From: Microgenomates group bacterium RBG_16_45_19
GTDB lineage: Bacteria > Patescibacteriota > Microgenomatia > UBA1400 > RBG-16-45-19
Assembly: GCA_001803415.1 (NCBI GenBank)
Contig: MHDC01000038.1
Coordinates: 1-57,625 of the forward strand
DNA: 57,625 nt
Reading direction: 5' to 3'
The notes beneath the pieces were generated by a model. The model was not told where the DNA came from and did no database searches. It saw only the letters and a program-made list of their open reading frames with translations. Shown here piece after piece: positions 44,050 to 57,625 of this stretch. The position numbers and the translations under genes are program-made. Numbering within the stretch: position 1 is the stretch's first letter; each line of letters opens with the position of its first letter.

Positions 44050-44649
44050 ATGGCTAATCCGGTCAGCGAGGCAATCAATCGCCACTATCTCCAAGTTCAG
44101 GCTTTAACCCCTGCCTCGGCTCAAACCACTTTCGGTTCCGCTACCTCAACCCCGTCCATTGATTGGTTTTCTCTGGCTACGCCGGCCTTTATCGTCTTTA
44201 CGGCTTTGTTAATTGTGGGCATTATTGGCTTACTTCTGACTCACACCAAAAATATCAACAAACTCCTAGTGGTCATCAGCATCGCCTTTCTCACCAGTTT
44301 AGTTCCGGTCAGTCTCAATTTAGTCAATCAGCAAGCTAGCTTAGTCACTAAGGCTGGTGCCGGTGATGTTCCCACCCAAGTCTTAGTTGATCAAGTCACC
44401 CCCACTGGTTTTGACGTTTCCTGGCAAACTGATAATCCCTCTGTCGGTGCCATTCGTCTCCGGGAGCCGGGTCAACCTCCCGAATATAATCGGATTATTG
44501 CCGAGGATCAGGAGACCGGCATTTATACCCATATTATCCGCGTTACTGATCTTCGGGCCGCTACCACTTACGCTTTTGAGGTGCTTTCCGGTGGCAATTG
44601 GTACAACGATCAAGGCCAACCATTATTGGTCACCACTCGGTCACCTTAA
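44050..44649 (+). CDS. Two-TM protein with C-terminal fibronectin-III-like domain
   Basis: VTPTGFDVSWQTD...H.IRVTDL...TTY.FEV pattern. Confidence 0.65.
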   Translation: MANPVSEAINRHYLQVQALTPASAQTTFGSATSTPSIDWFSLATPAFIVFTALLIVGIIGLLLTHTKNINKLLVVISIAFLTSLVPVSLNLVNQQASLVTKAGAGDVPTQVLVDQVTPTGFDVSWQTDNPSVGAIRLREPGQPPEYNRIIAEDQETGIYTHIIRVTDLRAATTYAFEVLSGGNWYNDQGQPLLVTTRSP

Positions 44650-44653
44650 GGTT

Positions 44654-46228
44654 TTATTCCAAATTATTCGCCAGCGTGATCAAGTCGTTTAACGAGGCTT
44701 TGGTCGAACTGATAAAGATCAAAACATTAACTCTGGTCGTATACATCACCGCTCTTAAAGCCCCCTTAGAATTAATTGTTTCCAGGGTATAAGCGGTGTC
44801 TTGGGTCGCTCCCGGCACTAACACTGCCGCCGGCGACGCCATCCCAGTCAGCAAGCCTGAGGCAAACTGGGCCGTGGCGAAGCCTGGGGGCACGTCTACC
44901 TGGCGTAAAATGATCGGCGATGGTCCACCCCTCTGGCTTTGCTGCCCTAAGGGATAATCAAAGGTGACTTGCACAAAATCAGTCCGGCCGTTGAGCATGC
45001 CTTCACCTTGATTGATCCGGTACTGGGTTTTATAAGTCCGGCCACCCGGAATAGCTTTGGGTTTATATAAATTGAAACTGACTTGTTCCTCCACCGCCGA
45101 AAAAGCGTAATTGTCGCTAAAAGCAAAAGCGTAGGCGCCCCCGAGTAAACCGCCGATAATGAAAATGCTAAAAAAGGTAAACAAACTCACCATCGCTTTA
45201 CTGTTCCGGTTATTATAGCTGCCGGTTGACCTAAACCAAGAAAAACAGACTGCGGTTAAGATCGCTAACGCCAAAAACGCGTATTGGTAAACAAAAATTC
45301 CTTTTATTAAAAAATTAATCAAGTTAGCTGGTAGGTTGAGGTTAGCGGTCGCGAGGTTGGTTAATGGCTCCAGTTGAACCGACATTAACCGGCGGGTCAT
45401 CCCGACCATGATTGGAGCGCCTAAGGCCACCATCACTCCCAACACCCAGCCGGTTCTGGAGCTTTCTTTCAGGTAAACACTCGCCCAAAAAGAGGCAATC
45501 GCCGCCAACAGTAACATCAACGGTAACGCTCCCAAAAGCGGTGCTTCCTTTAAAAAGGCAAAAGCTAAGGCTTGACCTTCTAGCAAGAACCGGTTGAACT
45601 GATAGCCAATCAAGAGCAATCCCAAGCTGATCAATAAATAGAATCCCCCCATCAGTAAATAAATCAGACTTAAGCCTCTGGCTAATACCGGTGCCGTTTC
45701 CTGGGCGGAGATGATTGTCCCGCCCATCGTTTGCGGTGGTGGGATGACCGCGGCTGCCGGCGGGACGGTCATGACCGGTTTTAACGGTGGTTTGACCGTC
45801 GTTGGCACCGCGGTTACCTGAGTCGGTGCCGGTTTATAAATGTTTACCACTACCGGTTGGGGGGCAATGAGCGGTGCCGTTTCGGTGGCTGGTTTAACTG
45901 GATAATAAATTCCCGGAAGATTAGGAGTCGTGGTAAATTGACCCGCGATCTTAGTCGGTGTTGTGGCTGCTTCCAGGGGTGGGGGGGATGCCTGGTTCTG
46001 CACCACTTGGGGGTATTCGACTGGTTTTATGGGCGCCGATGGGGTTAACCACGCCGGTACCGCTGCTGGCGGCTGGTTACTGATCGGTTCATACAAACTC
46101 GCCAATTGAGGCAAACCGGCTGCCGGGGCGGGGTTGATGGGCTCTTCGTACTCTAACCCCAATTCTGGGGCCGGAGGCAGACCAAAACCACCCACCGCTG
46201 GCTTAACTGCCTGGGCAGGGTCATTCAT
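44654..46228 (-). CDS. Pro-rich N-terminal, multi-TM hypothetical protein
   Basis: About 180 aa Pro/Ala-rich region, about 5 TM helices, soluble C-terminal domain; ATG 46228. Confidence 0.7.
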   Translation of the reverse strand: MNDPAQAVKPAVGGFGLPPAPELGLEYEEPINPAPAAGLPQLASLYEPISNQPPAAVPAWLTPSAPIKPVEYPQVVQNQASPPPLEAATTPTKIAGQFTTTPNLPGIYYPVKPATETAPLIAPQPVVVNIYKPAPTQVTAVPTTVKPPLKPVMTVPPAAAVIPPPQTMGGTIISAQETAPVLARGLSLIYLLMGGFYLLISLGLLLIGYQFNRFLLEGQALAFAFLKEAPLLGALPLMLLLAAIASFWASVYLKESSRTGWVLGVMVALGAPIMVGMTRRLMSVQLEPLTNLATANLNLPANLINFLIKGIFVYQYAFLALAILTAVCFSWFRSTGSYNNRNSKAMVSLFTFFSIFIIGGLLGGAYAFAFSDNYAFSAVEEQVSFNLYKPKAIPGGRTYKTQYRINQGEGMLNGRTDFVQVTFDYPLGQQSQRGGPSPIILRQVDVPPGFATAQFASGLLTGMASPAAVLVPGATQDTAYTLETINSKGALRAVMYTTRVNVLIFISSTKASLNDLITLANNLE

Positions 46229-46279
46229 ACCCTTAAGTATACCCAACTCCAAGTTAAAGTTTACCGTTAAATTTTTTCA

Positions 46280-46308
46280 TTGACATATCCGTTACAATAA
46301 AATAAGCT
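46280..46308 (+). promoter_or_regulatory. sigma70-type promoter for the 46351-hpt unit
   Basis: TTGACA-N17-TAAGCT; GGAGG SD before 46351. Confidence 0.5.
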
Positions 46309-46350
46309 TTCCTGTCCAAGTGTGATCACCTGTCGTTAATTAGGAGGCCT

Positions 46351-46842
46351 ATGCTCTTCGCTTTGATTATTTATCTTCTCTCTCAGTTATCTCCTTACCC
46401 TTCTGCTTCGGTGGCCCCCGTTATTTACCCACTACCGCCGGCCAAATCGGCGCCTCTGGGCGCCGCCCAAGCTACCCCGACTTTAAAGCCTCCGGCTTCA
46501 CCTTTAAATCCAGAGACTCCCCCTAAAGCTCAGGCCGAAAATTTGGCCAGTGGCCAGGTGATCAAGTCGGTGCCAGAAGTGGCCATCAGCCGGTCGCCAG
46601 TGCTGATTCCCTGCCTAATTGATTTACGTAATTGTGAACCCACCGGTAAACCTAAACCGACTCCAACCCCTTTGCCTAAAGTCGAGCCGACCGCCCGCCC
46701 GCTACCGAGGCTGACCCTGAAACCGGAACCGTTACCAATTGAGCCCATTTCCCCTCTTCCCACCGGCTGCCCTCGTCCGGTAAATTATAAATTAGATCAA
46801 CCAGATATCTATATACCTGAGTGTCCCCTGGAATCTATCTAA
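46351..46842 (+). CDS. Pro-rich secreted hypothetical protein
   Basis: Signal-like N-terminus, low-complexity Pro-rich body, good SD. Confidence 0.6.
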   Translation: MLFALIIYLLSQLSPYPSASVAPVIYPLPPAKSAPLGAAQATPTLKPPASPLNPETPPKAQAENLASGQVIKSVPEVAISRSPVLIPCLIDLRNCEPTGKPKPTPTPLPKVEPTARPLPRLTLKPEPLPIEPISPLPTGCPRPVNYKLDQPDIYIPECPLESI

Positions 46843-46845
46843 TCC

Positions 46846-47361
46846 ATGCCCGTTCGTCAACTCTACTCACCCCCCCAAATTCAACGCAGCATTAACCGCT
46901 TGGCTAAACAAATCGCCGCCGATTATCGGGGTAAACCGCTGATTTTAATCGGTATTCTCCGTGGTGGCTTCATTGTCTTGGCTGACTTAGTTCGGGCTTT
47001 ATGGTTGGCCGGTCATCATGATTTAGATATCGATTTTATTACTACTAGTAGTTATTTAGAGAGTAATATTTCGGCTCAAGTACCACCCAAGATTATCGTT
47101 GATTTAAACCGGAGTCTGGCTGGTCAGCATGTTTTGATTGTTGAAGATATCTGTGATACTGGCCTGACTCTTAACTTAGTCCAAAAGCAGCTTCGGGCGG
47201 CCGGACCCAAATCCTTAAAAACCTTCACCTTTCTTGATAAACCCTCCCGACGTCAAGTCCCGGTTAAACTTGATTATATTGGCTTTACCGTCAACGGTTG
47301 GATCGAGGGTTATGGCCTGGATGCTGATCGGGCTTGTCCCTCAGTTGTGGTCAAAACCTAA
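46846..47361 (+). CDS. hpt: Hypoxanthine phosphoribosyltransferase
   Basis: GILRGG, VLIVEDICDTGLTL PRPP motif, LDKPSRR, GYGLD. Confidence 0.92.
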   Translation: MPVRQLYSPPQIQRSINRLAKQIAADYRGKPLILIGILRGGFIVLADLVRALWLAGHHDLDIDFITTSSYLESNISAQVPPKIIVDLNRSLAGQHVLIVEDICDTGLTLNLVQKQLRAAGPKSLKTFTFLDKPSRRQVPVKLDYIGFTVNGWIEGYGLDADRACPSVVVKT

Positions 47362-47362
47362 A

Positions 47363-47890
47363 TTACCGGATAAATAGGAATGCTGCGGTTTGATTAACGA
47401 TCTCCCCGCAACCATAAGTCCACTCGGCCAGTAGATTGTCTCGGTGTCCGCCACTCTCAATCCAAGCTTGGACTACGGCCGCCGTGGATACATCCGTCCC
47501 CCACCATAAATTTTCGGCGCTGGCTGAATGAGGCATCGCTTTAATTGCCTCCAGGTAACCGCTATGGTCTAAATTCCGGCCGACTGCTGCCGCCCGCCCT
47601 CTTGCTGCCTCACATAAAGCCGTCAATGGCTTTAACTCTGATTTGCCCTGTTGTCTTCGGTAATCATTCACCGCCGCTAGTAAGGGGGGAGTTGGCCGCT
47701 CCATCTGTCTCGCCGGTGGTCCGGTTGGTATTGGCGTCGGTGCTTCTGGTCTGGCTATGAGTGAGCTGATCGTGGCTTCAGGCTTATGCTGATAGTAGAC
47801 ATCACTGTAATTGGTTACTTTTGGCCAACTGGTAATAGTCATCATCCCCAAACTTAATTTCACCATGACCTCGGTCCATTGGTTTATCAT
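47363..47890 (-). CDS. CAP (SCP) domain protein
   Basis: VNDYRRQQG..L, H, AENL, W..SGGHRDNLL. Confidence 0.85.
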   Translation of the reverse strand: MINQWTEVMVKLSLGMMTITSWPKVTNYSDVYYQHKPEATISSLIARPEAPTPIPTGPPARQMERPTPPLLAAVNDYRRQQGKSELKPLTALCEAARGRAAAVGRNLDHSGYLEAIKAMPHSASAENLWWGTDVSTAAVVQAWIESGGHRDNLLAEWTYGCGEIVNQTAAFLFIR

Positions 47891-48000
47891 TCAATAAATT
47901 AAATAATTAAACAATACTTTAAAATAACCACACATCCACCCAAAATTCAACCGCATTTACCTATACCCTCAAGATACTTTTCTTAAGTTATAATACGCAC

Positions 48001-48453
48001 ATGAAACCCATCAAATCACTTATCCAAACCTACCCTTATCGGACTGTCGCTTTGATTCAGTCACTGATCGCTACCGTCGGTAGTTTATTCCTTAGCCAAG
48101 TTTGGCTCTTAGTCCCCTGTGAACTGTGTTGGTTTCAACGGATCTTTATGTATCCCCTACCATTTATTCTGGGGATCGGTTTGATCAGACGGGAAACTAA
48201 ACTTTATCAATATGTCTTACCCCTCAGTTTGATTGGTCTAACCATCGCCGCCTACCATACCTATCTCTACTATTACGCTAACTATTCTCTCAACGGTGCC
48301 AACGAGACCGTCATGATCGCTTGCAGCGGTGGTGTCTCCTGTACTAATCAACTGATTGAATGGTTTGGGTTTATTACCGTCCCCTTGCTCTCATTTCTTG
48401 CCTTCTCAGTTATCACCCTAGCCATGCTCAAGGAACGCCACGACTCCATCTAA
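48001..48453 (+). CDS. dsbB: Disulfide bond formation protein DsbB/BdbC
   Basis: PCELCWFQRIFMYPL, second Cys pair CSGGVSC, FGFITVP. Confidence 0.92.
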   Translation: MKPIKSLIQTYPYRTVALIQSLIATVGSLFLSQVWLLVPCELCWFQRIFMYPLPFILGIGLIRRETKLYQYVLPLSLIGLTIAAYHTYLYYYANYSLNGANETVMIACSGGVSCTNQLIEWFGFITVPLLSFLAFSVITLAMLKERHDSI

Positions 48454-48470
48454 TCAATAGCTTTCCCTTG

Positions 48471-48571
48471 GTCGCAATTACTGAACGAAGCTCGAACCTT
48501 TATTGAACGAAACTCCGACTGATTGCCGCGCTTTGCGCGGCATAAACTGAACGCTCAGGCGGGCTAAAAGG
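48471..48571 (+). repeat. 101-bp inverted repeat, left copy (att-like arm + GC hairpins)
   Basis: Reverse complement of 53326-53426 with 2 mismatches by manual alignment. Confidence 0.95.
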
Positions 48572-49602
48572 TAAGATAATAATGATTCAGCTCCTTGGTT
48601 TAGGTTGATTCCTTTTTCCTCTAATCCGTCATATACTCCACCTGTATTCTGATCAACCATTCTAGCCCCCAAAATATTTCTCCCATGATACCAATCGAGA
48701 GCTTTTTGGGCCCAATCTAAATATTTTTTTTCTTTGGTAACCGAAAACGCTTCGGTGCAGGCTTCCACCACTGAACCCGCCTCAATCGGTTGTTGCACGA
48801 AAAGAGCTTTTTTGCCGTTTTTTTCAAACCACCCTCGATAACCCGGAAAAGAAAAACAGTCTAATTTTTTGTCATAAATCTGTTCCAGTAATAAATCTAA
48901 AGATTCCTTAGCGATATTCAAATATTTTATATTGCCAAAAACTGAGTAAGCCCAAAACAAAGCCCATGGCAATCTCCCAATATCATATGTAATCTTATCC
49001 TCAAACCATCTCCACGAAATGTCAGAGTTTTTTTCGTAGCTGGTTATTAATTCATCAGATAATATTATTGCCATTTTTTTAAAGTCATATTTACTCATCT
49101 GTCCAATTTTTTTTTTGGAGATTTTAACCTTTATATAATTTTCTAACACCGATCCCAGTTTGGAGCTACACTGATCTCTCACCAATAGACCGTAAATCAA
49201 CCATGCCTTGCTCCTAAGGGATTCTACCTTTTCGATATATTTTACGTACTGATCAAATAAGAACATGCCTGTCAGTTTCTGGTCATCCCTTAACCCCAGT
49301 TTTATAGTATCCGCTAATCCCGCCATTGCCCGGCCAAAATTTTCTCCAATGGACTCATTTTCCCAAACCAAATTCTGATTCAGATCATTCTTATAACTAT
49401 ATTTCCCAGCAGCCGATACTAAAAATTTCAAGTAAATATCAACCAATTTTTCCTCTTTCAATCGAAGTGCCACCTGTAAAGCTCGCGCATTATCATCCAC
49501 GCAGTACCCCTCCCGCAAATCTGGCGTAGCTATCAAACAATGCTCTGCTATCCCGACCATGTCCGTCATCCGATAAAGGTGATCAAGCTTTGGTTTATTC
49601 AT
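48478..49602 (-). CDS. Six-hairpin glycosidase-like protein (the domain often fused to GT4 enzymes); C-terminal tail derived from the repeat
   Basis: GYCVDDNARAL, W.WFED..TYD, QQPIEA, GGVYDGL, NQGAES. Confidence 0.8.
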   Translation of the reverse strand: MNKPKLDHLYRMTDMVGIAEHCLIATPDLREGYCVDDNARALQVALRLKEEKLVDIYLKFLVSAAGKYSYKNDLNQNLVWENESIGENFGRAMAGLADTIKLGLRDDQKLTGMFLFDQYVKYIEKVESLRSKAWLIYGLLVRDQCSSKLGSVLENYIKVKISKKKIGQMSKYDFKKMAIILSDELITSYEKNSDISWRWFEDKITYDIGRLPWALFWAYSVFGNIKYLNIAKESLDLLLEQIYDKKLDCFSFPGYRGWFEKNGKKALFVQQPIEAGSVVEACTEAFSVTKEKKYLDWAQKALDWYHGRNILGARMVDQNTGGVYDGLEEKGINLNQGAESLLSYLLARLSVQFMPRKARQSVGVSFNKGSSFVQ

Positions 49603-50626
49603 GTTTTTCCTTTGCCTTCAAAATTTCTTGATATACTTTTTCATAATTATCTACCATTCGTTCCACCGTAAAGTTTTTATCTACTCTTTCCCTACAATTT
49701 TTCCTGGAAATTAGGTCAATATTTTTCATAGCCCGTTCTGCTTCTTTGAGATTTTTAACAACAAAGCCCGTTTTTCGATCGTCAATTACTTCAGGAATAG
49801 ACCCCAATTCCATTCCGATAACGGGTGTCCCAGTTACCATCGCCTCAATGAGAGTTAAGCCAAATCCTTCGGGGTAGGTGTTTAAATGAAGAAAGCCATA
49901 AGCGTTTTTCAACAGAGCTTTCTTGTCTTCCTCGTCGACTAATCCTACATATTGGATTTTAGAATTTAGATGAGGTTTGATTTCTTTTTCAAAGTATTCT
50001 TTATTTTCTGAAGCGATAAGGCCGGCAATTTTTAGGTTAGCGTTTAGTTTTTTTACCAACTTTATCGCATTATGGACACCTTTATCCGGAGATATTCGAC
50101 CGATAAAACAAAAATAATTATCTGGCTTACCGTTATACGGGTACTCGTTTACCGGAATACCGTGATAAATATTGGCTATATAATTTAAATCCGGTGCGTG
50201 TTTTCGATCGGCATAGCTTATTGAAACATAATGGGTATTTGAATATTTTTTGTAAATTTGGATAACTTGCGGAGAGGAAAAACCGTGGATGGTAGTAACA
50301 ACGGGGGTTTTAACCAGTTTTGAGAAAACAAGCGGGTAAGCATCGTAGTGATTATGGATAATATCGTATTGATCTGAGTCTTCAAAAACCGAAGCCGTAT
50401 GAAGGTATTGATAAACTCTTGGTTCTAAACCGGAGTTTTCCATTATCGGTTTAGGACAGACCCATTTTAACCGGGCAGTAGTTACCGAATCTCCTGTTGC
50501 GTAAAGAGTTACTGTATGGCCGAGTTTCACCATTCCTTCTGCGATACGACTGGCAATTAATTCCCACGGGCCGTATGTAGTCGGAGGAGTTCTCCAATGA
50601 ATTGATGAAAGAATAGCAATTTTCAT
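49595..50626 (-). CDS. Glycosyltransferase family 4
   Basis: PP..YGPWE, GRISPDKG, EGFGLTLIEAM..GTPVI. Confidence 0.93.
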   Translation of the reverse strand: MKIAILSSIHWRTPPTTYGPWELIASRIAEGMVKLGHTVTLYATGDSVTTARLKWVCPKPIMENSGLEPRVYQYLHTASVFEDSDQYDIIHNHYDAYPLVFSKLVKTPVVTTIHGFSSPQVIQIYKKYSNTHYVSISYADRKHAPDLNYIANIYHGIPVNEYPYNGKPDNYFCFIGRISPDKGVHNAIKLVKKLNANLKIAGLIASENKEYFEKEIKPHLNSKIQYVGLVDEEDKKALLKNAYGFLHLNTYPEGFGLTLIEAMVTGTPVIGMELGSIPEVIDDRKTGFVVKNLKEAERAMKNIDLISRKNCRERVDKNFTVERMVDNYEKVYQEILKAKEKHE

Positions 50627-50631
50627 TACGT

Positions 50632-51819
50632 TTATTTTTTTAAAATAGTAATTGTTTTAAAAAGATCGAGGTATCGAAGTCCTATATTTGACCAGGTCAT
50701 TAACCTTCCGTAATCGTACGCTTTTTGGCTAATTTTTTCTTTTTTATCCTGATTTTCCCACAATTCTATTACCGCAGAAGCAATCGAGTCAGCGTCCTGA
50801 AAAGGAACAAGAATACCTCTGGTATTGTTTAGAACCTCCTTCGCATATAAATATGGGGTGGAAATACAACATTTTCCTGCGCCTAGGGCATAAGCAAGCG
50901 CTCCGGAGGCAGCTTGTTGGGGATCAAGATACGGGGAGACATAAAAATCAATGGTTTTTAACCAATCGATTAATTCGTCAAGCGAAAGATATTTGTTAAC
51001 AAATTTGACATTCTTTTCTATTTTTAGTCTTTTTATTTCCTTTTCAAGAAAATTGCGGTATTCTTCGCCGTTAGTTTGTAAAAATACCGGGTGTGTTTGT
51101 CCGATTACTAGATATAAAACATTTGGATAAATTTTGGCGATAGTAGCCACGGCATCTAAAGCATACTCAATTCCTCTCGTTGGAGTTAATAGATTAATAT
51201 TACCAAGAATTATCTTTCCGGTAAGTTGTTTTTTCTCCTTATATGTATCTGTCGGAGCAAATGTAAAATCGGGCGTTCCGTGCGGGATGACTATAATTTT
51301 TTCTCTAGAGGCGCTATATGTATTGACCAATTTCTCCTTAATTTTTTCCATCATAACAACGACAGCATCCGATTTTTTAATTAACCTTTTTAAAATTGCT
51401 CCTTCCCGACTGTTTGGATCATCTAGTACGGTGTGGAGGGTAGTTACTAGCGGTTTTTTTAGCGATTCTACAAAAGGAATAATATATTCACCACATTGAC
51501 TGCCGTACAAGCCATATTCGTGTTGGAGTGAGATAATATCAGTACTCGATTGATTAATGTAGTTAGCTGCTTCAAGATAAGTATGTAACTCCTCTTGTTT
51601 AATTTTGTATTTTACTTCCCACGGGTAATTTATACGCTCTTTTGGCCTTGTGGTGGCCATAATTTCTGCCAAATTATGAGGATTAAGTAAGTTGATCGCG
51701 TTAGTTAAATCTTTTGTATAAGTGGCAATACCACACTTACGGGGTATGTATGAAGAAAGGTAAATAACCCTAATTTCTTTAGACTTTGAAGTTAAAAGTT
51801 TTTCTAAGTTTTTTGTTAT
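50632..51819 (-). CDS. Glycosyltransferase family 4; conserved N-terminus lacks a canonical start (ATA at 51819)
   Basis: Frame is open upstream of the ORF-track start and encodes LSSYIPRKCGIATYT; QHEYGLYG, IPHG, GQTHP, SGALAYA.G, STPY. Confidence 0.85.
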   Translation of the reverse strand: MTKNLEKLLTSKSKEIRVIYLSSYIPRKCGIATYTKDLTNAINLLNPHNLAEIMATTRPKERINYPWEVKYKIKQEELHTYLEAANYINQSSTDIISLQHEYGLYGSQCGEYIIPFVESLKKPLVTTLHTVLDDPNSREGAILKRLIKKSDAVVVMMEKIKEKLVNTYSASREKIIVIPHGTPDFTFAPTDTYKEKKQLTGKIILGNINLLTPTRGIEYALDAVATIAKIYPNVLYLVIGQTHPVFLQTNGEEYRNFLEKEIKRLKIEKNVKFVNKYLSLDELIDWLKTIDFYVSPYLDPQQAASGALAYALGAGKCCISTPYLYAKEVLNNTRGILVPFQDADSIASAVIELWENQDKKEKISQKAYDYGRLMTWSNIGLRYLDLFKTITILKK

Positions 51820-51938
51820 ACTTGAGATCCTTCCTTTACTTGCGTTTCATCTCGTTGAGAAATCAGCCCATAATATACCACTAATCTTCCATTTTGTACA
51901 ATTGTGCCGGTTGGAAAAACTACATTGTTTGTTTGTCC
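51816..51938 (-). pseudogene. C-terminal fragment of a second GH130 gene
   Basis: Manual translation GQTNNVVFPTGTIVQNGRLVVYYG matches the adjacent GH130 GVTNNVVFPTGAVVRDKRLYIYYG. Confidence 0.8.
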
Positions 51939-52951
51939 TATCTTTTCTTGAGCTGCGTCAACAGCTCTGTGAGGTCAACAGATTTAGCGGCGATTAACTT
52001 GTCAGCAGCCCCATAATAAATATAAAGTCTTTTATCTCTTACTACTGCTCCGGTAGGAAAGACAACATTATTTGTAACACCACTTTTTTCCCAAGAAGCC
52101 TTTGGGGAAAACAGAGGTTCTTTTAATCGCCCCAAAACTTTTAGGGGATTTTTGAGATCAAGTAGGGCAGCGGAGGCGTGATAGATTTTTCCAAAAGGAG
52201 AATCCTGCACCGCATGATAGATAATAAGCCATCCGTCTTTTGTTTCGATAGGGGGACAACCACCGCCAATGTTGCGGTTTTCAAACCAAAAAAGAGGATC
52301 AAGTACAATAAAATCACCTAAATTCTTGAAATAATTGCGCCAGCAGTCTTTTGTAAGTTCGGAGAAATTATTAAAGTAAACAATTTGGATTCCGGGTAAT
52401 ATTCGGTGGAGAAGAGCAAATTTATGATTGAATTTTTGGGGAAAGAGGGAGGCGTCTTTTTCAAATAGCAGAATGTCCTTGCCTTCCCTTTCTTTATAGA
52501 GCATTTCGAACATGGTATATATTTCTCTGACTTTTGACTCGCGAAAAATGTCTTCCGCTTCATCGTAAGAGATTTTCGGCGAGATAAGGCCTTGTTTGGC
52601 GAAATGGACAAGATCTTTACTTGTGGCGTAGGCAATAAGAGCATTTTTACCGTAATGGGCAGTATAGAGAAGGTAATATGTTCCTTCTAAAAGAGTAATT
52701 CTGGGATCTTCTACACCTTTTTTCTCATAATCATATTCCTGGGATAAGATTGGCTCTTTAAGTCTTTTTACAACTTTATTATCTTTCAGCTGGCAGTAGC
52801 CTATGGAAGAAACATCATTGCGGTTAATTGCCCGATAAAACATGTGGGTAATGTCATCCACCTGGATGCAGGCAGGGTTTAAAACACCTTTATTTTCGAA
52901 TTCCAGATTTGTTTTTTCTAAAATTATTCCCTCGTTTTTGACTGTAATCAT
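51938..52951 (-). CDS. GH130-family glycoside hydrolase/phosphorylase (DUF377)
   Basis: GVLNP, GVEDPRI, KD..LFP, LLHRI, GG.PPI.T..GWL..YH, NVVFPTG, YYGAAD. Confidence 0.9.
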   Translation of the reverse strand: MITVKNEGIILEKTNLEFENKGVLNPACIQVDDITHMFYRAINRNDVSSIGYCQLKDNKVVKRLKEPILSQEYDYEKKGVEDPRITLLEGTYYLLYTAHYGKNALIAYATSKDLVHFAKQGLISPKISYDEAEDIFRESKVREIYTMFEMLYKEREGKDILLFEKDASLFPQKFNHKFALLHRILPGIQIVYFNNFSELTKDCWRNYFKNLGDFIVLDPLFWFENRNIGGGCPPIETKDGWLIIYHAVQDSPFGKIYHASAALLDLKNPLKVLGRLKEPLFSPKASWEKSGVTNNVVFPTGAVVRDKRLYIYYGAADKLIAAKSVDLTELLTQLKKR

Positions 52952-52980
52952 AATCTTTAATTCCTCAATTGGTTAGACTT

Positions 52981-53208
52981 TTATTTACCCTGTAATTGAT
53001 AACCGGTTAATTCATCCAAACCAACCCCGAGGGCTTTCGCCATTTTCTTTAGCGTATCAAGCGTTGGGTTAATATTCTCGCCCTGCTCAATCTTAATAAT
53101 CGTGTTGTTGGCAACATCGGCGAGCTTGGCGAGACGATCTTGCGAAAGCCCCTTTTTCTCTCGTAGCTTCTTAAGATTTTTTGATAGCGGATATTCTTGC
53201 TTTGACAT
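52981..53208 (-). CDS. XRE-family HTH transcriptional regulator
   Basis: LKKLREKKGLSQ..LA, IE.G...NPTL.TL..MAKALGV. Confidence 0.92.
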   Translation of the reverse strand: MSKQEYPLSKNLKKLREKKGLSQDRLAKLADVANNTIIKIEQGENINPTLDTLKKMAKALGVGLDELTGYQLQGK

Positions 53209-53234
53209 AGTTTATCTACATTAGTACTATTTTA

Positions 53235-53263
53235 ATGATACTATAAAATACATTTTCAGTCAA
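53235..53263 (-). promoter_or_regulatory. Promoter for the XRE-GH130-GT4 unit
   Basis: Minus strand TTGACT-N17-TATCAT; repeated ATAGTA boxes near the start are possible autoregulatory operators. Confidence 0.55.
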
Positions 53264-53325
53264 AATATTCGGGAGCAATGATTTGTTGTGTGCGCACGGA
53301 TGGGCGGCGCAAACACAACCCCCTT

Positions 53326-53426
53326 CCTTTTAGCCCGCCTGAGCGTTCAGTTTATGCCGCGCAAAGCGCGGCAATCAGTCGGAGTTTCGTTCAAAAAAGG
53401 TACGAGCTTCGTTCAGTAATTGCGAC
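53326..53426 (-). repeat. 101-bp inverted repeat, right copy
   Basis: 99/101 identical to the reverse complement of 48471-48571; contains tgccgcgc-aaa-gcgcggca hairpin. Confidence 0.95.
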
Positions 53427-53510
53427 AAAGTTAGAACCGAATTTCGCAATTGTTAGCTCGCTTTGCGAGCAATTATAATCTGATAAAATGATATCAAGAA
53501 TACAACAATT

Positions 53511-54221
53511 ATGAAACTAAATTTTCCTAAATCACCAGCCACCTCTTGGGTTATAAGGACGAAAAATGAAGAAAAATGGTTCGGTAAAGTTTTGGAAACC
53601 CTTTTTATGCAATCTAGGCTTGATTTTGAAGTGATAATCGTAGACTCCGATTCTACAGACAAAACTATCGAAATTACAAAAGACTTTCCGGTTCGAAAGA
53701 TTATTAACGTTTCTGAAAAAGACTTTAATTATAGCTATGCGCTTAATCTTGGAATTAAAGAGTCTTGGGGCGAATACATAGGAATTATTAGCGGCCATTC
53801 GCTTCCTATAAGTCGAACATGGTATCAGGATGGGATGAAGAATTTTGCTGACCCTAAAATGGCAGCAGTGACAGGTTGCTATACGGCATTACCCGATGGT
53901 TCCCTAGATGAGGAACTAGGCGATCTTCATTTTGATCAGAGACGACTGGAAAAAGAGTATTATTGCAAATGGATGACCAACACAAACGTAATTATCAGAA
54001 AGGATTTGTGGAGAAAATACCCATTTGATGAGAGGCTAGAAGAGTGTGAGGACTATGATTGGGCTTGTGAAATGATTGCAAGAGGATGGAATATTGTTAA
54101 AGACCCAAGATTCAACGTTTATCATTCTCATGGCGGGATTGGAAGATCAACTTACAGTGAAAGGGTTCCCACTTGGCAAAGGGTTTGTGCACTTATTGAT
54201 AAAAAGAAAAGACCGAGCTAA
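53511..54221 (+). CDS. Glycosyltransferase family 2
   Basis: VIRTKNEE, EVIIVDSDSTDKT, ALNLGI, PFDE...EDYDW. Confidence 0.9.
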   Translation: MKLNFPKSPATSWVIRTKNEEKWFGKVLETLFMQSRLDFEVIIVDSDSTDKTIEITKDFPVRKIINVSEKDFNYSYALNLGIKESWGEYIGIISGHSLPISRTWYQDGMKNFADPKMAAVTGCYTALPDGSLDEELGDLHFDQRRLEKEYYCKWMTNTNVIIRKDLWRKYPFDERLEECEDYDWACEMIARGWNIVKDPRFNVYHSHGGIGRSTYSERVPTWQRVCALIDKKKRPS

Positions 54222-54240
54222 CCTTCTTGTAGAGGCATAT

Positions 54241-55161
54241 ATGGAAAATCAAATTAATGTTGGTAATCAAAATACCCAGCAAATCGGTCAAAATCCTATT
54301 AACCAAAATGTACAAACTACAGGAAATCCGAAGGTAAAATATTTGGCCTTAGGAATAGTGGTTTTTCTTGGATTTTTACTTTTTGGTCTTGGTGGGTATT
54401 ACTTTGGTAAACAGTCAACAAATTCCTATCAGGATTCAAAAAAAACAGCAAATCAACCTCTCCCCTCTTCGACTACTACTGAAGCTGACGACGCGGCCGA
54501 CTGGAAAGTATATTCAAATGAGAAGTATGGATTTGAAGTAAAATACGATCCTGAATCAAGTCCAACCGAACAAGTTGGAACCGAAGACACTGGTCAATTT
54601 ACATATTTACTATTGGTTAAATTTGGAACAAATCCGTTAAAATTTCCGCATGGCTATACATTAACAGTTAATAAACAAAAATCTTTAGATGACTATCGTA
54701 CGGAGTTAATTGGTCACAGCACTGACAAAATTGATTCAGAAAAAGAAACAACGACCAATGATAGTACTTGGACAAAATTAAATTATCAAATATTTCTGAC
54801 AACAGATTATATTCCTGTTACAACAGCAATTTTAAGCAAATCTGGATATAGTTATACTATAACTGCCAGCATACTAGATATTGACCAAATCCTTTCTACT
54901 TTTAAATTCAGAATAAAATACACTGACCTAAGTGAACTAAAAACTGCGGACGTACTTGTTCAAGATGGGTCGTACTACGGACCACCTTTCGATCCAGATT
55001 TATATCAACTTGAGATCGGACAATCAAATCATCTGTTTGCTAAAAGTGACACAGTAAATCTCAAACAGTATTTAGGTAAGCGTATTAAAGTTAGCTATCG
55101 AGAAATCAAGGGGATAGTAATGGGCGAACAACAATTAGTAATTGTTGAATCTGTTGATTAA
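54241..55161 (+). CDS. Single-TM anchored hypothetical surface protein
   Basis: Q/N-rich N-terminus, TM ending GGYYFGK, WKVYSNEKYGFEVKY, DQILSTFKF; ATG 54241. Confidence 0.75.
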   Translation: MENQINVGNQNTQQIGQNPINQNVQTTGNPKVKYLALGIVVFLGFLLFGLGGYYFGKQSTNSYQDSKKTANQPLPSSTTTEADDAADWKVYSNEKYGFEVKYDPESSPTEQVGTEDTGQFTYLLLVKFGTNPLKFPHGYTLTVNKQKSLDDYRTELIGHSTDKIDSEKETTTNDSTWTKLNYQIFLTTDYIPVTTAILSKSGYSYTITASILDIDQILSTFKFRIKYTDLSELKTADVLVQDGSYYGPPFDPDLYQLEIGQSNHLFAKSDTVNLKQYLGKRIKVSYREIKGIVMGEQQLVIVESVD

Positions 55162-55405
55162 AAGCGATTGCGGAGCAATCGCAAAAATCGCGCGCGCAAA
55201 AAATAATTGCGAAGAATTGGCATTCTTCGCAAAACGTGTCGGTTCGAACTTCTTTTTATCCAATCGGCAGCTCGCGGCCGAATATAAAAAGGGCTTCTCG
55301 GCGCTCCGTGCGGACGGCGGTGCACGGAGCGCCTCCACCCTTCCGGACTCTTTTTCTCTTTTGGTCGGCGTTCCTGGACGAATTGAGGAACGCCTGGTAC
55401 AAACT
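55160..55405 (+). pseudogene. Probable C-terminal remnant of a large serine recombinase gene ending in an att-like site
   Basis: No start/SD; GC-rich hairpin-dense segment reading IAKIARAKNNCEELAFFAKRVGSNFFLSNRQL..., ending (+1 frame) in WSAFLDELRNAW, homologous to the repeat arm. Family assignment from recollection of CPR recombinase tails. Confidence 0.45.
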
Positions 55406-55607
55406 CAATTCTTTCGAGTTCAGTGTACCAAATATCGGTCGATTTCTCAATCCAAATCCAGCCTTACTCATTATGAGTTGAGGGGTATGGGTTGCCACGA
55501 GACCTTCATATTTTATGATTACTGAGTCCTTGTAAAACTGCAATGAATTTTTTCAAATTACCAGAGAACTTCTCCCCAAAATAAGCTATAATTGCAGATA
55601 GATTGAT

Positions 55608-56402
55608 ATGAAGAAAAATAAGACAGCAATTGTCACTGGTGGGGCGATGGGCTATAAAACTGGCGGCACTTCTATTGGCGGTGCAATCTCCATAAAACTT
55701 GCGAAAGAAGGCTTCAGCGTAATCGTCGTTGATTTAGGCGAAATGGGACAGAGAACGGTGGACGTTATTAAGAAAAATGGCGGGGACGGAATATTTCTCA
55801 AAGCAGATGTTACCAATACGGAGGAAGTTAATAAAATCATTGACACAATCAAATCAACTTATGGTAGTCTTCATTGTCTTGTAAATTGTGTTGCTCGTTA
55901 TAGCCCTGGTATGGGGAAAAATGTAGCTGACATTTCAGAAGAAGAATGGAATAAAACTCTTGAGGTGAATTTAAACGGGTATTTTAAAATGGCAAAGTAT
56001 TCGATTCCCTTGATGCTTGAATCAGGTGGTGGAACGATTATAAACATATCTTCAATTGAGAGCCAGGTAGTATTACCTAACTTCAGTGTTTATTCTGTCT
56101 CAAAGGCTGCTGTTGACGCATTAACCAGAACTATGGCTGTGGATTTTGCTCCCAAAATACGATCAAATTCTGTTGTGCCTGGCTTCGTAAAGATTGCCAA
56201 CTCAGAGAATAACAGAACCCCAGAACAGCTTGAGAAATGGTATAGCGATATTTCAAAGCAGTATCCAATGAAGCGAGTCTGTGAAGTCGATGAAATTGCA
56301 AATATAGTTGCGTTTCTGGCAAGTGACCAATCTTCTTACATCAACGGACAAGCGATCGTAGTGGACGGGGGCAAGACCATCGCTGACACTCACGAGTTTT
56401 GA
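55608..56402 (+). CDS. Short-chain dehydrogenase/reductase (SDR)
   Basis: TGG...IG, ADVT, INISS, YSVSK catalytic motif, PG, GQAIVVDGG. Confidence 0.93.
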   Translation: MKKNKTAIVTGGAMGYKTGGTSIGGAISIKLAKEGFSVIVVDLGEMGQRTVDVIKKNGGDGIFLKADVTNTEEVNKIIDTIKSTYGSLHCLVNCVARYSPGMGKNVADISEEEWNKTLEVNLNGYFKMAKYSIPLMLESGGGTIINISSIESQVVLPNFSVYSVSKAAVDALTRTMAVDFAPKIRSNSVVPGFVKIANSENNRTPEQLEKWYSDISKQYPMKRVCEVDEIANIVAFLASDQSSYINGQAIVVDGGKTIADTHEF

Positions 56403-56729
56403 TTAAATATTTTATGTCTGATCGGTACCCCGTAAACTAAGACAATCTTCTACGACTCAGCGTTACAATACGGTCGTAAGAAAGGAGTCTTAAATGCAGC
56501 GGAAAATGATCCCCAATTTGGAGATACTCGATACTTTTGTTACTGCATTGTTTGAGTTGAAAAGTTCTAACAAAAAGCCAGTTTTGGCTTCTTGATAGTG
56601 TAATTATTGGCTCTTTTTGATATAATCCGAGTCAGGTTGATATAACCAGCCACTCAAGTTAGAATAATTTGAAACCGCCAGATTGGTTATATCAGTCAGG
56701 CGGTTTGTTATTGAATGGAGGTGAATATT

Positions 56730-57050
56730 ATGGCAGAAGAAAGAGCAGGTTTCCAAAGACCACAGCCAACCCGAGATAACTGGACATCTCGGCTTAGGCA
56801 AGAACACGGTCTTCATACGGATGCATCAATGGAAGAAGTTGAGCAGAAGGCGATCTCTTTATTGGGAAGTCCTCCCACAGCAATTACTGGAGCTGAGTTA
56901 GTTTTAGGTCGTAGGGTAGATGCAGGAGATAAAGAAATTACACCCATAATTGCAACTCCTGGATTAAGTCCCGAAGACAGGTTTAGGCTTCTATTGTTAC
57001 GAAAATCTGTGGAGGATATGCAAGAAGAACAGGGTGGGGAAAAGGGTTAA
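56730..57050 (+). CDS. Hypothetical protein
   Basis: Strong GGAGGTG SD before ATG 56730; directly upstream of the recombinase. Confidence 0.65.
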   Translation: MAEERAGFQRPQPTRDNWTSRLRQEHGLHTDASMEEVEQKAISLLGSPPTAITGAELVLGRRVDAGDKEITPIIATPGLSPEDRFRLLLLRKSVEDMQEEQGGEKG

Positions 57051-57064
57051 GCCCTTGTGTCAAT

Positions 57065-57550
57065 ATGGAAGAAGAGCTTGATATAACCAAACTCAAGTAT
57101 GTTTTGTATGCTCGTAAATCAACCGAAGACGAAACGAGGCAGGTAAAGTCAATTGAAGACCAGATTGAAGAGTGTAAGATTTTTGCCAAAAGAGTCGGAA
57201 TAACTTTCGTTGATATTCTTCAAGAGTCGAAATCCGCCAAACGACCAAATAATCGCCCCATCTTCAGACAAATGCTTGATGACATCAAAGGAGGCAAATA
57301 TGACGGAATTTTATCATGGCACCCTGATAGGCTCTCCCGAAATATGCTTGAAGGCGGTGAAATCATTAACATGATTGACGAAGGGGTTATTCAAGACCTC
57401 AAGTTCGTGACTCACCATTTTACCAACGACGCCAGTGGAAAGATGTTACTCGGAATTGCATTTGTACTCTCGAAAGAGTTTTCGGATAAGCTATCTACTG
57501 ATGTTACGAGAGGAACAAGGAGAAGGCTCAATAACGAGGGCAGGATATGA
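57065..57550 (+). pseudogene. Serine recombinase (resolvase catalytic domain), apparently a truncated large serine recombinase
   Basis: LYARKSTED (catalytic Ser), SIEDQ, ESKSAK...RP.F..M, WHPDRLSRN, helix E LS.DV.RG; stops at EGRI*, where large recombinases continue into the DNA-binding domains. Confidence 0.8.
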
Positions 57551-57625
57551 CCCCCAAAAACTGTACCGGTTCTAGTTCTCAAATCTTCGGTTAAACTTCG
57601 CTCGATTTAATTGGCGTTTTCATCT

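Follow-up and report, generated by a model that had tools for sequence, protein, structure and literature searches.

What are the two long inverted repeats that bracket a set of glycan genes in a bacterial genome of the Patescibacteria, and how did the DNA between them come to lie there? The question arises on contig MHDC01000038.1 of Microgenomates group bacterium RBG_16_45_19, which was analysed over its 57,625 nt (hereafter the window). The window is contig C38 of genome G000, a 45-contig bin of 1.37 Mb that is 86.7% complete; C1, C4 and C25 are other contigs of G000, G003, G040 and G044 are related genomes, and L-numbers denote fetched contigs or loci. The two arms, IR-L (left) and IR-R (right), enclose a segment that an earlier sequence-only reading had taken for the product of a recent duplication of an attachment (att) module, giving a phase-variable invertible unit or one resembling a composite transposon. 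The explanation that we favour, with a probability of about 0.6, is that the segment is a recombinase-less cargo cassette, made up of an XRE-family regulator and four glycan genes and bounded by attachment arms of a large serine recombinase (LSR), and that the arms have recently been homogenised by gene conversion. The cassette looks like swappable cargo rather than an on/off switch.

The inverted arms and the island around them

A repeat search of the window placed the arms at 48467-48571 and 53326-53430, each 105 nt long, 97% complementary and separated by 4754 nt. Direct comparison found three mismatches over the 105 nt, with the inner 69 nt identical, and the similarity breaks off sharply on both sides. 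The sequence-only reading had described 48471-48571 and 53326-53426 as reverse complements with two mismatches that both end outward in GTCGCAA; both statements were confirmed, the third mismatch lying in the four extra outer bases. A 35-nt piece of the arm has two matches in the window and none in 100 dinucleotide shuffles. Neither BLAST with the arm nor an nhmmer profile of 71 family members, run at E up to 10, detected a third copy in the 45 contigs. Both arms are copies of a conserved element, the "head", beginning GTCGCAATTRCTGAACGAAGCTCGAACC. In the family alignment, the right element runs past the arm into the family consensus, AAGGAAGGGGGTT, and then into a matching tail, GTGTTTGC..GCGCACACAAC; the left copy breaks off at AAAAGG and is therefore truncated.

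The position of the segment became clear from G003, a genome of the same family. Its DsbB ortholog is 70% identical, and synteny in tblastx covers window 44191-48438, with none beyond. In G003, dsbB directly abuts tRNA-Pro(ggg) on the other strand (...AAAATC followed by TGGTCGGGGAGGGG), and the genes past this tRNA are syntenic with C25 of G000 from 32020 to 28713. The tRNA-Pro(GGG) of G000, at C25:32516-32587 and 1.8 kb short of the end of that contig, is separated from dsbB by at least 11 kb, composed of window 48467-57625 and C25 from 34372 to 32588. Because dsbB and tRNA-Pro are adjacent in G003, with synteny on both sides, the additional DNA in G000 represents an insertion. IR-L starts with TGGTCG, common to both genomes, at the exact position of the tRNA start (reverse strand) in G003, and GTCG is common to four sites, namely IR-L (TTGGTCGCAATT), the tRNA junction (CCTAGTCGGGGAGG), G003 (TCTGGTCGGGGAGG) and IR-R on the reverse strand (CTTTGTCGCAATT). 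The junctions carry this short core alone, without a long direct repeat or duplicated flanking bases. On this genome comparison, a gene island is inserted between dsbB and tRNA-Pro(GGG) and IR-L is its junction with the chromosome, which supports the description of the arms as att modules. The features of the segment and its borders are as follows.

48001..48453, plus strand: dsbB (Pfam DsbB), the last chromosomal gene before the island, where synteny with G003 ends
48467..48571, plus strand: IR-L, a 105-nt truncated head copy with the shared core GTCG at 48471-48474, placed by the comparison at the distal island/chromosome junction
48478..49602, minus strand: six-hairpin-type glycan enzyme, 374 aa, with a weak Pfam match to C5-epim_C / GH76
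49595..50626, minus strand: GT4 glycosyltransferase (Pfam Glycos_transf_1)
50632..51672, minus strand: GT4 glycosyltransferase (Pfam)
51938..52951, minus strand: GH130 glycoside phosphorylase/hydrolase (Pfam Glyco_hydro_130, 1e-48)
52981..53208, minus strand: XRE-family helix-turn-helix regulator (Pfam HTH_3)
53262..53430, minus strand: right element (IR-R), with head, hairpin and conserved tail and with the middle module deleted; the arm proper is 53326-53430

The history of the arms can be read from the six-hairpin gene. The stop codon and the last ~26-30 residues of its open reading frame (ORF) are encoded by IR-L. The sequence-only reading had the arms enclosing the six-hairpin, GT4, GT4, GH130 and XRE genes, and the Pfam identities agree with this list, but the six-hairpin ORF is enclosed only in part. 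Alignments with homologs of the six-hairpin protein in the order end at residue 351-361, and the native protein of relatives has 353 aa and ends in ..LLARLSFED. The native gene end, AGGCGGGCTAAAAGG on the plus strand, is similar to the element consensus GGGCGGGCAAAAAGG, and this native-end patch is exactly where IR-L has its inner edge; IR-R holds gene-type variants in place of the family consensus. The presence of gene-type variants in IR-R, together with the extension of IR-L up to the native patch, indicates that the arms exchanged sequence in both directions, and this two-way exchange accounts for an arm identity of 97% in the window against 83% over 36 nt in L162, an unrelated contig with the same layout. 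Judged from these patches, recent gene conversion between two inverted copies that were already in place accounts better for the near-identity of the arms than a fresh duplication does; the short, diverged arms of L162 and the patches swapped both ways tell against the recent duplication of an att module that had been proposed. The converted tract would have extended inward as far as a chance similarity of 14 nt within the six-hairpin gene, whose last five codons and stop it would have replaced.

The island also carries a recombinase gene, 3.6 kb to the right of the segment. The catalytic domain of an LSR is encoded near the end of the window, and C25:32568-33674 encodes Recombinase and Zn_ribbon_recom domains beside tRNA-Pro, followed by an rve transposase that runs off the contig. 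The sequence ACTGTACCGGT at the window end recurs inverted, as ACTGTACCAGT, beside the ORF of this transposase at the end of C25, and the C-terminal part of the LSR overlaps the 3' end of tRNA-Pro(GGG). We infer from the two contigs that both halves belong to one LSR gene that was split by an rve-type insertion sequence (IS), with the frame changed at the break. The only DDE gene is that of the IS which interrupts the LSR, and the split LSR is probably inactive. A second, apparently intact LSR is encoded at C1:19537-20946, beside tRNA-Lys, and is 48% identical to the LSR of L064; it could act in trans on the island. The part of the island to the right of the segment contains the following features.

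53431..53480, plus strand: outer flank of IR-R, which resembles the start of an arm, R, that joins heads to LSR genes in L063 and L064
53450..53479, plus strand: promoter-like site for the GT2 gene (promoter scan), outside the right arm
53511..56402, plus strand: further island cargo, with GT2 at 53511-54221, unnamed ORFs and a short-chain dehydrogenase at 55608-56402 (Pfam)
57065..57550, plus strand: N-terminal catalytic (Resolvase) domain of the LSR (Pfam Resolvase, 1e-21)
57551..57625, strand not assigned: probable left end of the IS that interrupts the LSR, at the contig end

The GT2 protein is at most 29% identical to others within the family, and the cargo at 53511..56402 has no counterpart beside dsbB in G003 and no tblastx match there. 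Inside the segment, a promoter scan detected a promoter-like site, TTGACT-17-TATCAT, at 53263-53235 upstream of the XRE gene (10/12), in agreement with the earlier statement that the XRE promoter is enclosed; the statement that no transposase lies inside was likewise borne out by the Pfam scan, which found no recombinase within the segment either. The start region of the XRE gene has two strong promoter-like sites on opposite strands, this one and another at 53202-53230 on the plus strand, which reads into the right element; the opposed sites could be a Cro/CI-like switch. The second GT4 protein has 346 aa from its first start codon, compared with 395-397 aa in L158, L160 and L162 (region 50632-51819). 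Distant six-hairpin homologs of the order occur in open frames of ~700-760 aa in L149, L151, L152, L153 and L154, which suggests fusions of the homolog with another domain.

A head family, linked recombinases and the spread of the cluster

The arm was also sought in other genomes. Matches in other families of the same order are 84-91% identical; G044 has two copies, both at the ends of contigs, and the complete genome G040 has one. The hairpin of the arm, GCCGCGC/GCGCGGC in the window, reads GCTCCGCC/GGCGGAGC in G044. The 17-mer GTCGCAATTRCTGAACG, at no more than one mismatch, was found in 5 of the 286 genomes of the order, G000 included, and one of these five looks like a chance match. A public scan with one genome per species returned at least 126 stretches with the 17-mer; at least 70 distinct public copies keep matching beyond it, and the remaining stretches are chance matches in unrelated phyla. 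Among the matches listed, most true copies lie in records labelled Patescibacteria or candidate phyla radiation (CPR), and some stand under other deposited labels. Viral contigs gave four pattern matches, all by chance, and the literature on the motif, on CPR repeats and on LSRs in Patescibacteria, as judged from search results only, held nothing relevant. The arm is a member of a wide family and no private duplication of this genome.

The family alignment shows a head with a sharp outer boundary, usually preceded by TTG, followed by hairpins whose structure is kept while their sequence changes, and then by conserved middle and tail modules. Of the 70 copies listed, 24 are cut short by the end of a contig, 40-302 nt into the element, and 8 of these 24 ends fall at ~52-56 nt. 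Twelve distinct heads among the copies listed lie within ~310 nt of a tRNA-Pro gene, with the anticodons GGG, UGG and CGG. At several of them, the tRNA end CGACCA and the head start TGGTCG are connected by a palindrome consisting of two R starts, the pattern expected of a collapsed LSR module. Two of the fetched loci carry additional tRNA sequence downstream of tRNA-Pro and just before the head, as direct repeats of the tRNA-Pro 3' end (~60 nt) at L077:4069-4373 and as a partial second tRNA 3' half at L066:3570-3810; these resemble traces left by repeated integration and loss.

The linkage of head, LSR and tRNA recurs as a defined layout. L063 and L064 (L063:1-1971, L064:1-1972) have the order head-CGACCA-R-LSR-tRNA-Pro, with LSRs of 528 and 558 aa. 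R is an arm of ~150 nt, and near-identical inverted copies of it flank the LSR, one abutting the head and the other abutting tRNA-Pro, where it lies inside the annotated open frame of the LSR. The start of R aligns with the outer flank of IR-R, not with that of IR-L. The complete layout, tRNA-Pro-LSR-[head, cargo, inverted head], is found in L073; L035 has a partial form, [head, cargo, inverted head]-LSR, and L063 and L064 are likewise partial. Inverted pairs with the heads outward occur in the window, L033, L046, L035, L073 (weak), L045, where the second copy lies at the contig end, L107/L108, L162 and, as a mini-form, L092; heads-inward pairs occur in L113/L114 and L116, and five pairs are direct. 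The Pfam-annotated cargo between the arms differs among the window, L033 and L046, and L033 and L046 share a common locus with different cargo between the arms.

LSRs of the same family are present in 167 of the 286 genomes of the order (a tally that includes the unpublished genome G177). In 23 of 30 fetched loci of the order (L208-L237), a tRNA gene lies convergently at the 3' end of the LSR, and the linked tRNAs comprise ten specificities (Pro, Gly, Ser, Glu, Lys, Arg, Val, Gln, Tyr or Ile). In at least five of the other seven loci, the contig stops at the 3' end of the LSR or within it (no more than 131 nt from the matched part), hiding any tRNA. By their positions, the LSRs across the order look like a family of tRNA-targeting serine integrases.

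The glycan genes have a distribution of their own, which we followed in 37 loci from a metagenome scan with the central GT4. The stretch from six-hairpin to GH130 (window 48557-52954) is 85-92% identical in L158, L160, L163 and L170, where it has different neighbours, e.g., HflX/YceG and GroEL, and the housekeeping flanks of contigs with the cluster are at most 72% identical to G000 or unmatched. The six-hairpin protein matches 8 of the 286 genomes of the order, G000 included, and in the other seven at only 32-42% identity. L162 contains the whole unit, consisting of a diverged head, the four glycan genes, the XRE gene and a full-length inverted element, between unrelated flanks; its homology to the window ends at the head termini, and the cassette has the same orientation relative to the arms. 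The bounded unit therefore does occur in another context, which the sequence-only reading had proposed as a check. In two groundwater runs, contigs of at least 88% likeness cover the interior but not the flanks of the window. These comparisons of sequence and context show that the glycan cluster has spread horizontally. At the same likeness, the two groundwater metagenomes give a depth of 52-343 over 51918-53422 (GH130, XRE and right element) and of 8-60 over the rest, and the GH130-XRE-right element part seems to occur in many more organisms than the rest of the cassette.

Weighing the explanations

How could such a cassette have formed? An LSR binds each of its sites as two inverted half-sites. 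If the attachment site here is near-palindromic, an integrated element would be flanked by inverted copies of one arm, and such a site would explain both the heads-outward geometry and the absent target duplication. Both arms would then be copies of a single attachment-site arm, namely the head in the direction inward from the GTCG core. The cassette would form the distal part of the island of at least 11 kb, whose LSR gene occupies the tRNA end and overlaps the tRNA with its 3' end, and IR-R would join the cassette to the LSR-bearing module. We infer from the layouts that the head is bound by the LSR, that GTCG contains the crossover point and that the whole cassette moves together; it may have integrated alone, by tandem accretion, or may be an internal part of one composite element. 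With the LSR split by the IS, the arrangement would probably be fixed, barring action by the second LSR of the genome.

Several points weigh against this explanation. Matching IS ends are the basis for joining the two LSR halves, which come from different contigs. Under the textbook rules for LSRs, hybrid sites like these arms do not recombine together, and tandem insertion beside an occupied site is non-canonical. The head is conserved over ~45 nt and is followed by structured GC-rich modules, which exceeds the ~25 bp needed for an LSR half-site. ACTGA is common to the LSR-end arm and the head at a similar distance from the core, but the dyad symmetry is weak and was judged by eye only. Only five other head loci have an LSR in the fetched DNA, and L033 has none within 8 kb. 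Finally, L158, L160, L163 and L170 carry the four glycan genes without heads or XRE, so that the cluster can move without the arms.

A broader proposal is tentative, and we would sooner doubt it than adopt it: ultra-small CPR bacteria would harbour a widespread family of tRNA-targeting LSRs, in whose tRNA-Pro branch the attachment arm would have turned into a long, structured and conserved module, and inverted heads-outward pairs of this module would bound trans-moved, recombinase-less cassettes stacked at the tRNA. If true, this would be a cassette-exchange system for accessory genes (here surface-glycan genes), similar to SCC (staphylococcal cassette chromosome) elements or integrons and built on palindromic serine-integrase sites. 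The mobile elements and gene exchange routes of CPR/Patescibacteria are poorly described. A cassette of this kind would account for the 85-92% identical glycan sets in distantly related genomes and would give a reason why CPR genome bins break at particular spots; the candidate pairs of recombinase and attachment site, made up of LSR, tRNA 3' end and head or R arm, could be tried as genetic tools for organisms that have almost none.

The other explanations must account for the same observations. The arms are long, near-identical and inverted, with a serine recombinase beside the segment as in Gin/Hin-type layouts, and they have recombined with each other, as the exchanged patches indicate. All this would fit programmed or frequent inversion, in which the arms are crossover sites and the segment is flipped by the LSR, by its paralog on C1 or by RecA acting on 105 bp, with altered read-through between the cassette and the flanking dsbB and GT2 genes; a palindromic CG as crossover dinucleotide in GTCG would moreover abolish site polarity. 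We nevertheless regard inversion as improbable. With the promoter, the regulator and all five genes inside, a flip would not turn these genes on or off, and the promoter-like site of GT2 lies outside, so that the phase-variable switch of the sequence-only reading finds no support. The adjacent LSR is split by the IS, L162 keeps the same orientation of cassette and arms, and no opposite-strand joint at the arms appeared among the best-supported joints of short contigs from four runs. The many copies at contig ends may be taken as a sign of inversion, but such breaks are equally expected from any repeat. An assembly artefact would mean that an arm or the orientation of the interior was mis-joined in a metagenome-assembled genome. 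The genome is a 45-contig bin, the identity of the inner 69 nt means that short k-mers leave the orientation unfixed, and the independent Logan contigs from four runs match 48140-48499 and 52910-53393 and break inside both arms. One Logan contig, however, runs from the dsbB flank into the first 33 nt of IR-L with no other letters and includes two of the three variants specific to the left arm. The same layout is present in L162, and the left junction is a specific fusion within the six-hairpin gene, each base of which is accounted for by comparison with relatives; an artefact is scarcely credible.

A passive mosaic intergenic repeat, similar to BOX, BIME (bacterial interspersed mosaic element), REP (repetitive extragenic palindromic) or MITE (miniature inverted-repeat transposable element) sequences, would have been spread by some enzyme or by recombination; its placement on both sides of the cassette and the proximity of the LSR and tRNA-Pro would be incidental, and the arms mere portable homology for swapping cassettes. 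The modular build with head, variable hairpins and tail, of which modules are missing or inserted, the retention of hairpin structure under sequence change, and folding of both strands better than shuffles (z ~ -3 to -3.7) agree with this, as do the majority of copies that have no nearby recombinase, the different cargo at the one locus of L033 and L046 and the presence of an ORF similar to Y1 transposases in the genome (C4:43528-44226, minus strand, 232 aa, PF01797, IS200/RAYT-like, 30.6 bits). The Y1 gene is, however, not flanked by the element, and, set against G003, the outer boundary is sharp and falls at the 3' end of tRNA-Pro. The specific linkage to tRNA-Pro in 12 of the copies listed with three anticodons, the recurrence of head-CGACCA-R-LSR and the strong heads-outward bias among pairs also make a passive repeat unlikely. 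There is no target-site duplication, the flanks being CCCTTG/AAAGTT in the window, ATCTG/AGCTAA in L162 and GTTTCT/CAATCA in L046, and in the family alignment a single element has unrelated head and tail and hence no terminal inverted repeats; the absence of both the duplication and transposase-type ends also removes the basis for a composite-transposon-like unit. A structured small RNA or transcript leader, e.g., with a boxA-like motif (CCUUUUUUGAAC) or linked to the tRNA and processed at a stem with the tRNA-Pro trailer, would make the arms two genes for it or two regulatory copies. An unstructured, highly conserved 45-nt head followed by conserved hairpins with compensatory variants, its position 40-60 nt after tRNA-Pro and the long stem that links the tRNA end and the head start would suit such an RNA. 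Yet Rfam 15 has no match (none at the gathering score in the window, and chance-level hits only at E up to 10 for both arms and L033), the orientation to neighbouring genes is mixed and the left arm is a truncated copy within a coding region. In 44 of 53 copies the better fold is that of the reverse strand, but shuffles attribute this mostly to base composition, with a difference of 5.3 of the 7.1 kcal/mol, and the reverse z is lower in only 15 of 26. An RNA is thus very unlikely.

Further candidates were tried and set aside. As a promoter, the head fails since its hexamers are not conserved across copies (by eye). An rRNA leader was dropped because none of 10 long loci scanned has rRNA downstream, only tRNAs and one T-box, and a guide RNA of the IS200/IS605-TnpB type because the genome has no TnpB domain. 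The reverse head gave no acceptable T-arm or acceptor pairing for a tRNA-like fold (by eye). The location of an arm at a gene 3' end and the occurrence of all three mismatches at A on one strand hinted at a diversity-generating retroelement, which was rejected on two grounds: the C-terminal tail is non-native, and the arm is one member of a wide family.

Comparison with known systems

The closest parallel to the cassette explanation is offered by the SCC islands of staphylococci, in which Ccr LSRs direct insertion at the 3' end of rlmH/orfX and tandem arrays include recombinase-less pseudo-SCC cassettes. In both systems, an LSR uses the 3' end of a conserved gene for insertion, recombinase-bearing modules stand next to recombinase-less ones, the cargo varies, and the element ends have short inverted repeats and no target duplication. 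They differ in that the target here is a tRNA gene, that the arms span 45-330 nt, are structured and are conserved across many CPR lineages, that the junction repeats are inverted rather than direct, and that the element here is known from sequence alone. The available part of a survey of streptococcal integrative and conjugative elements (ICEs; PMC4701971) describes elements with a single serine integrase in rumA, whose attachment site lies inside the 3' end of the integrase gene, so that integration exchanges the integrase C-terminus, and whose flanking repeats are very short; the overlap of the LSR 3' end with the tRNA resembles this arrangement. In the same part of that survey, elements in tRNA genes all had tyrosine integrases and the serine integrases targeted protein genes, in contrast to the LSR family described here, which lies at tRNA 3' ends in 23 of 30 loci; measured against this one ICE survey, as far as it was available (PMC4701971), LSRs aimed at tRNA genes would be unusual.

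The use of a tRNA 3' end, the adjacent recombinase, the accessory cargo of glycan type and tandem accretion are shared with the tRNA islands of tyrosine integrases as generally known, whereas the enzyme here is of the serine type and the core is ~4-6 nt rather than a 15-50-nt direct repeat of the tRNA end. Gin, Hin and Cin are small serine invertases that act on sites of ~26-34 bp, and their inversions swap promoters or gene ends. The segment resembles their targets in having inverted sites on both sides and a serine recombinase gene beside it, but everything needed for expression lies inside, and the recombinase is of the large integrase type and broken. Pneumococcal BOX and enterobacterial BIME/REP sequences are mosaic intergenic repeats, with which the family shares conserved end modules, variable hairpin modules, an intergenic location and copies that break assemblies; the two copies in this genome, the sharp linkage to tRNA-Pro and LSR, and the heads-outward pairs around cargo set it apart from them.

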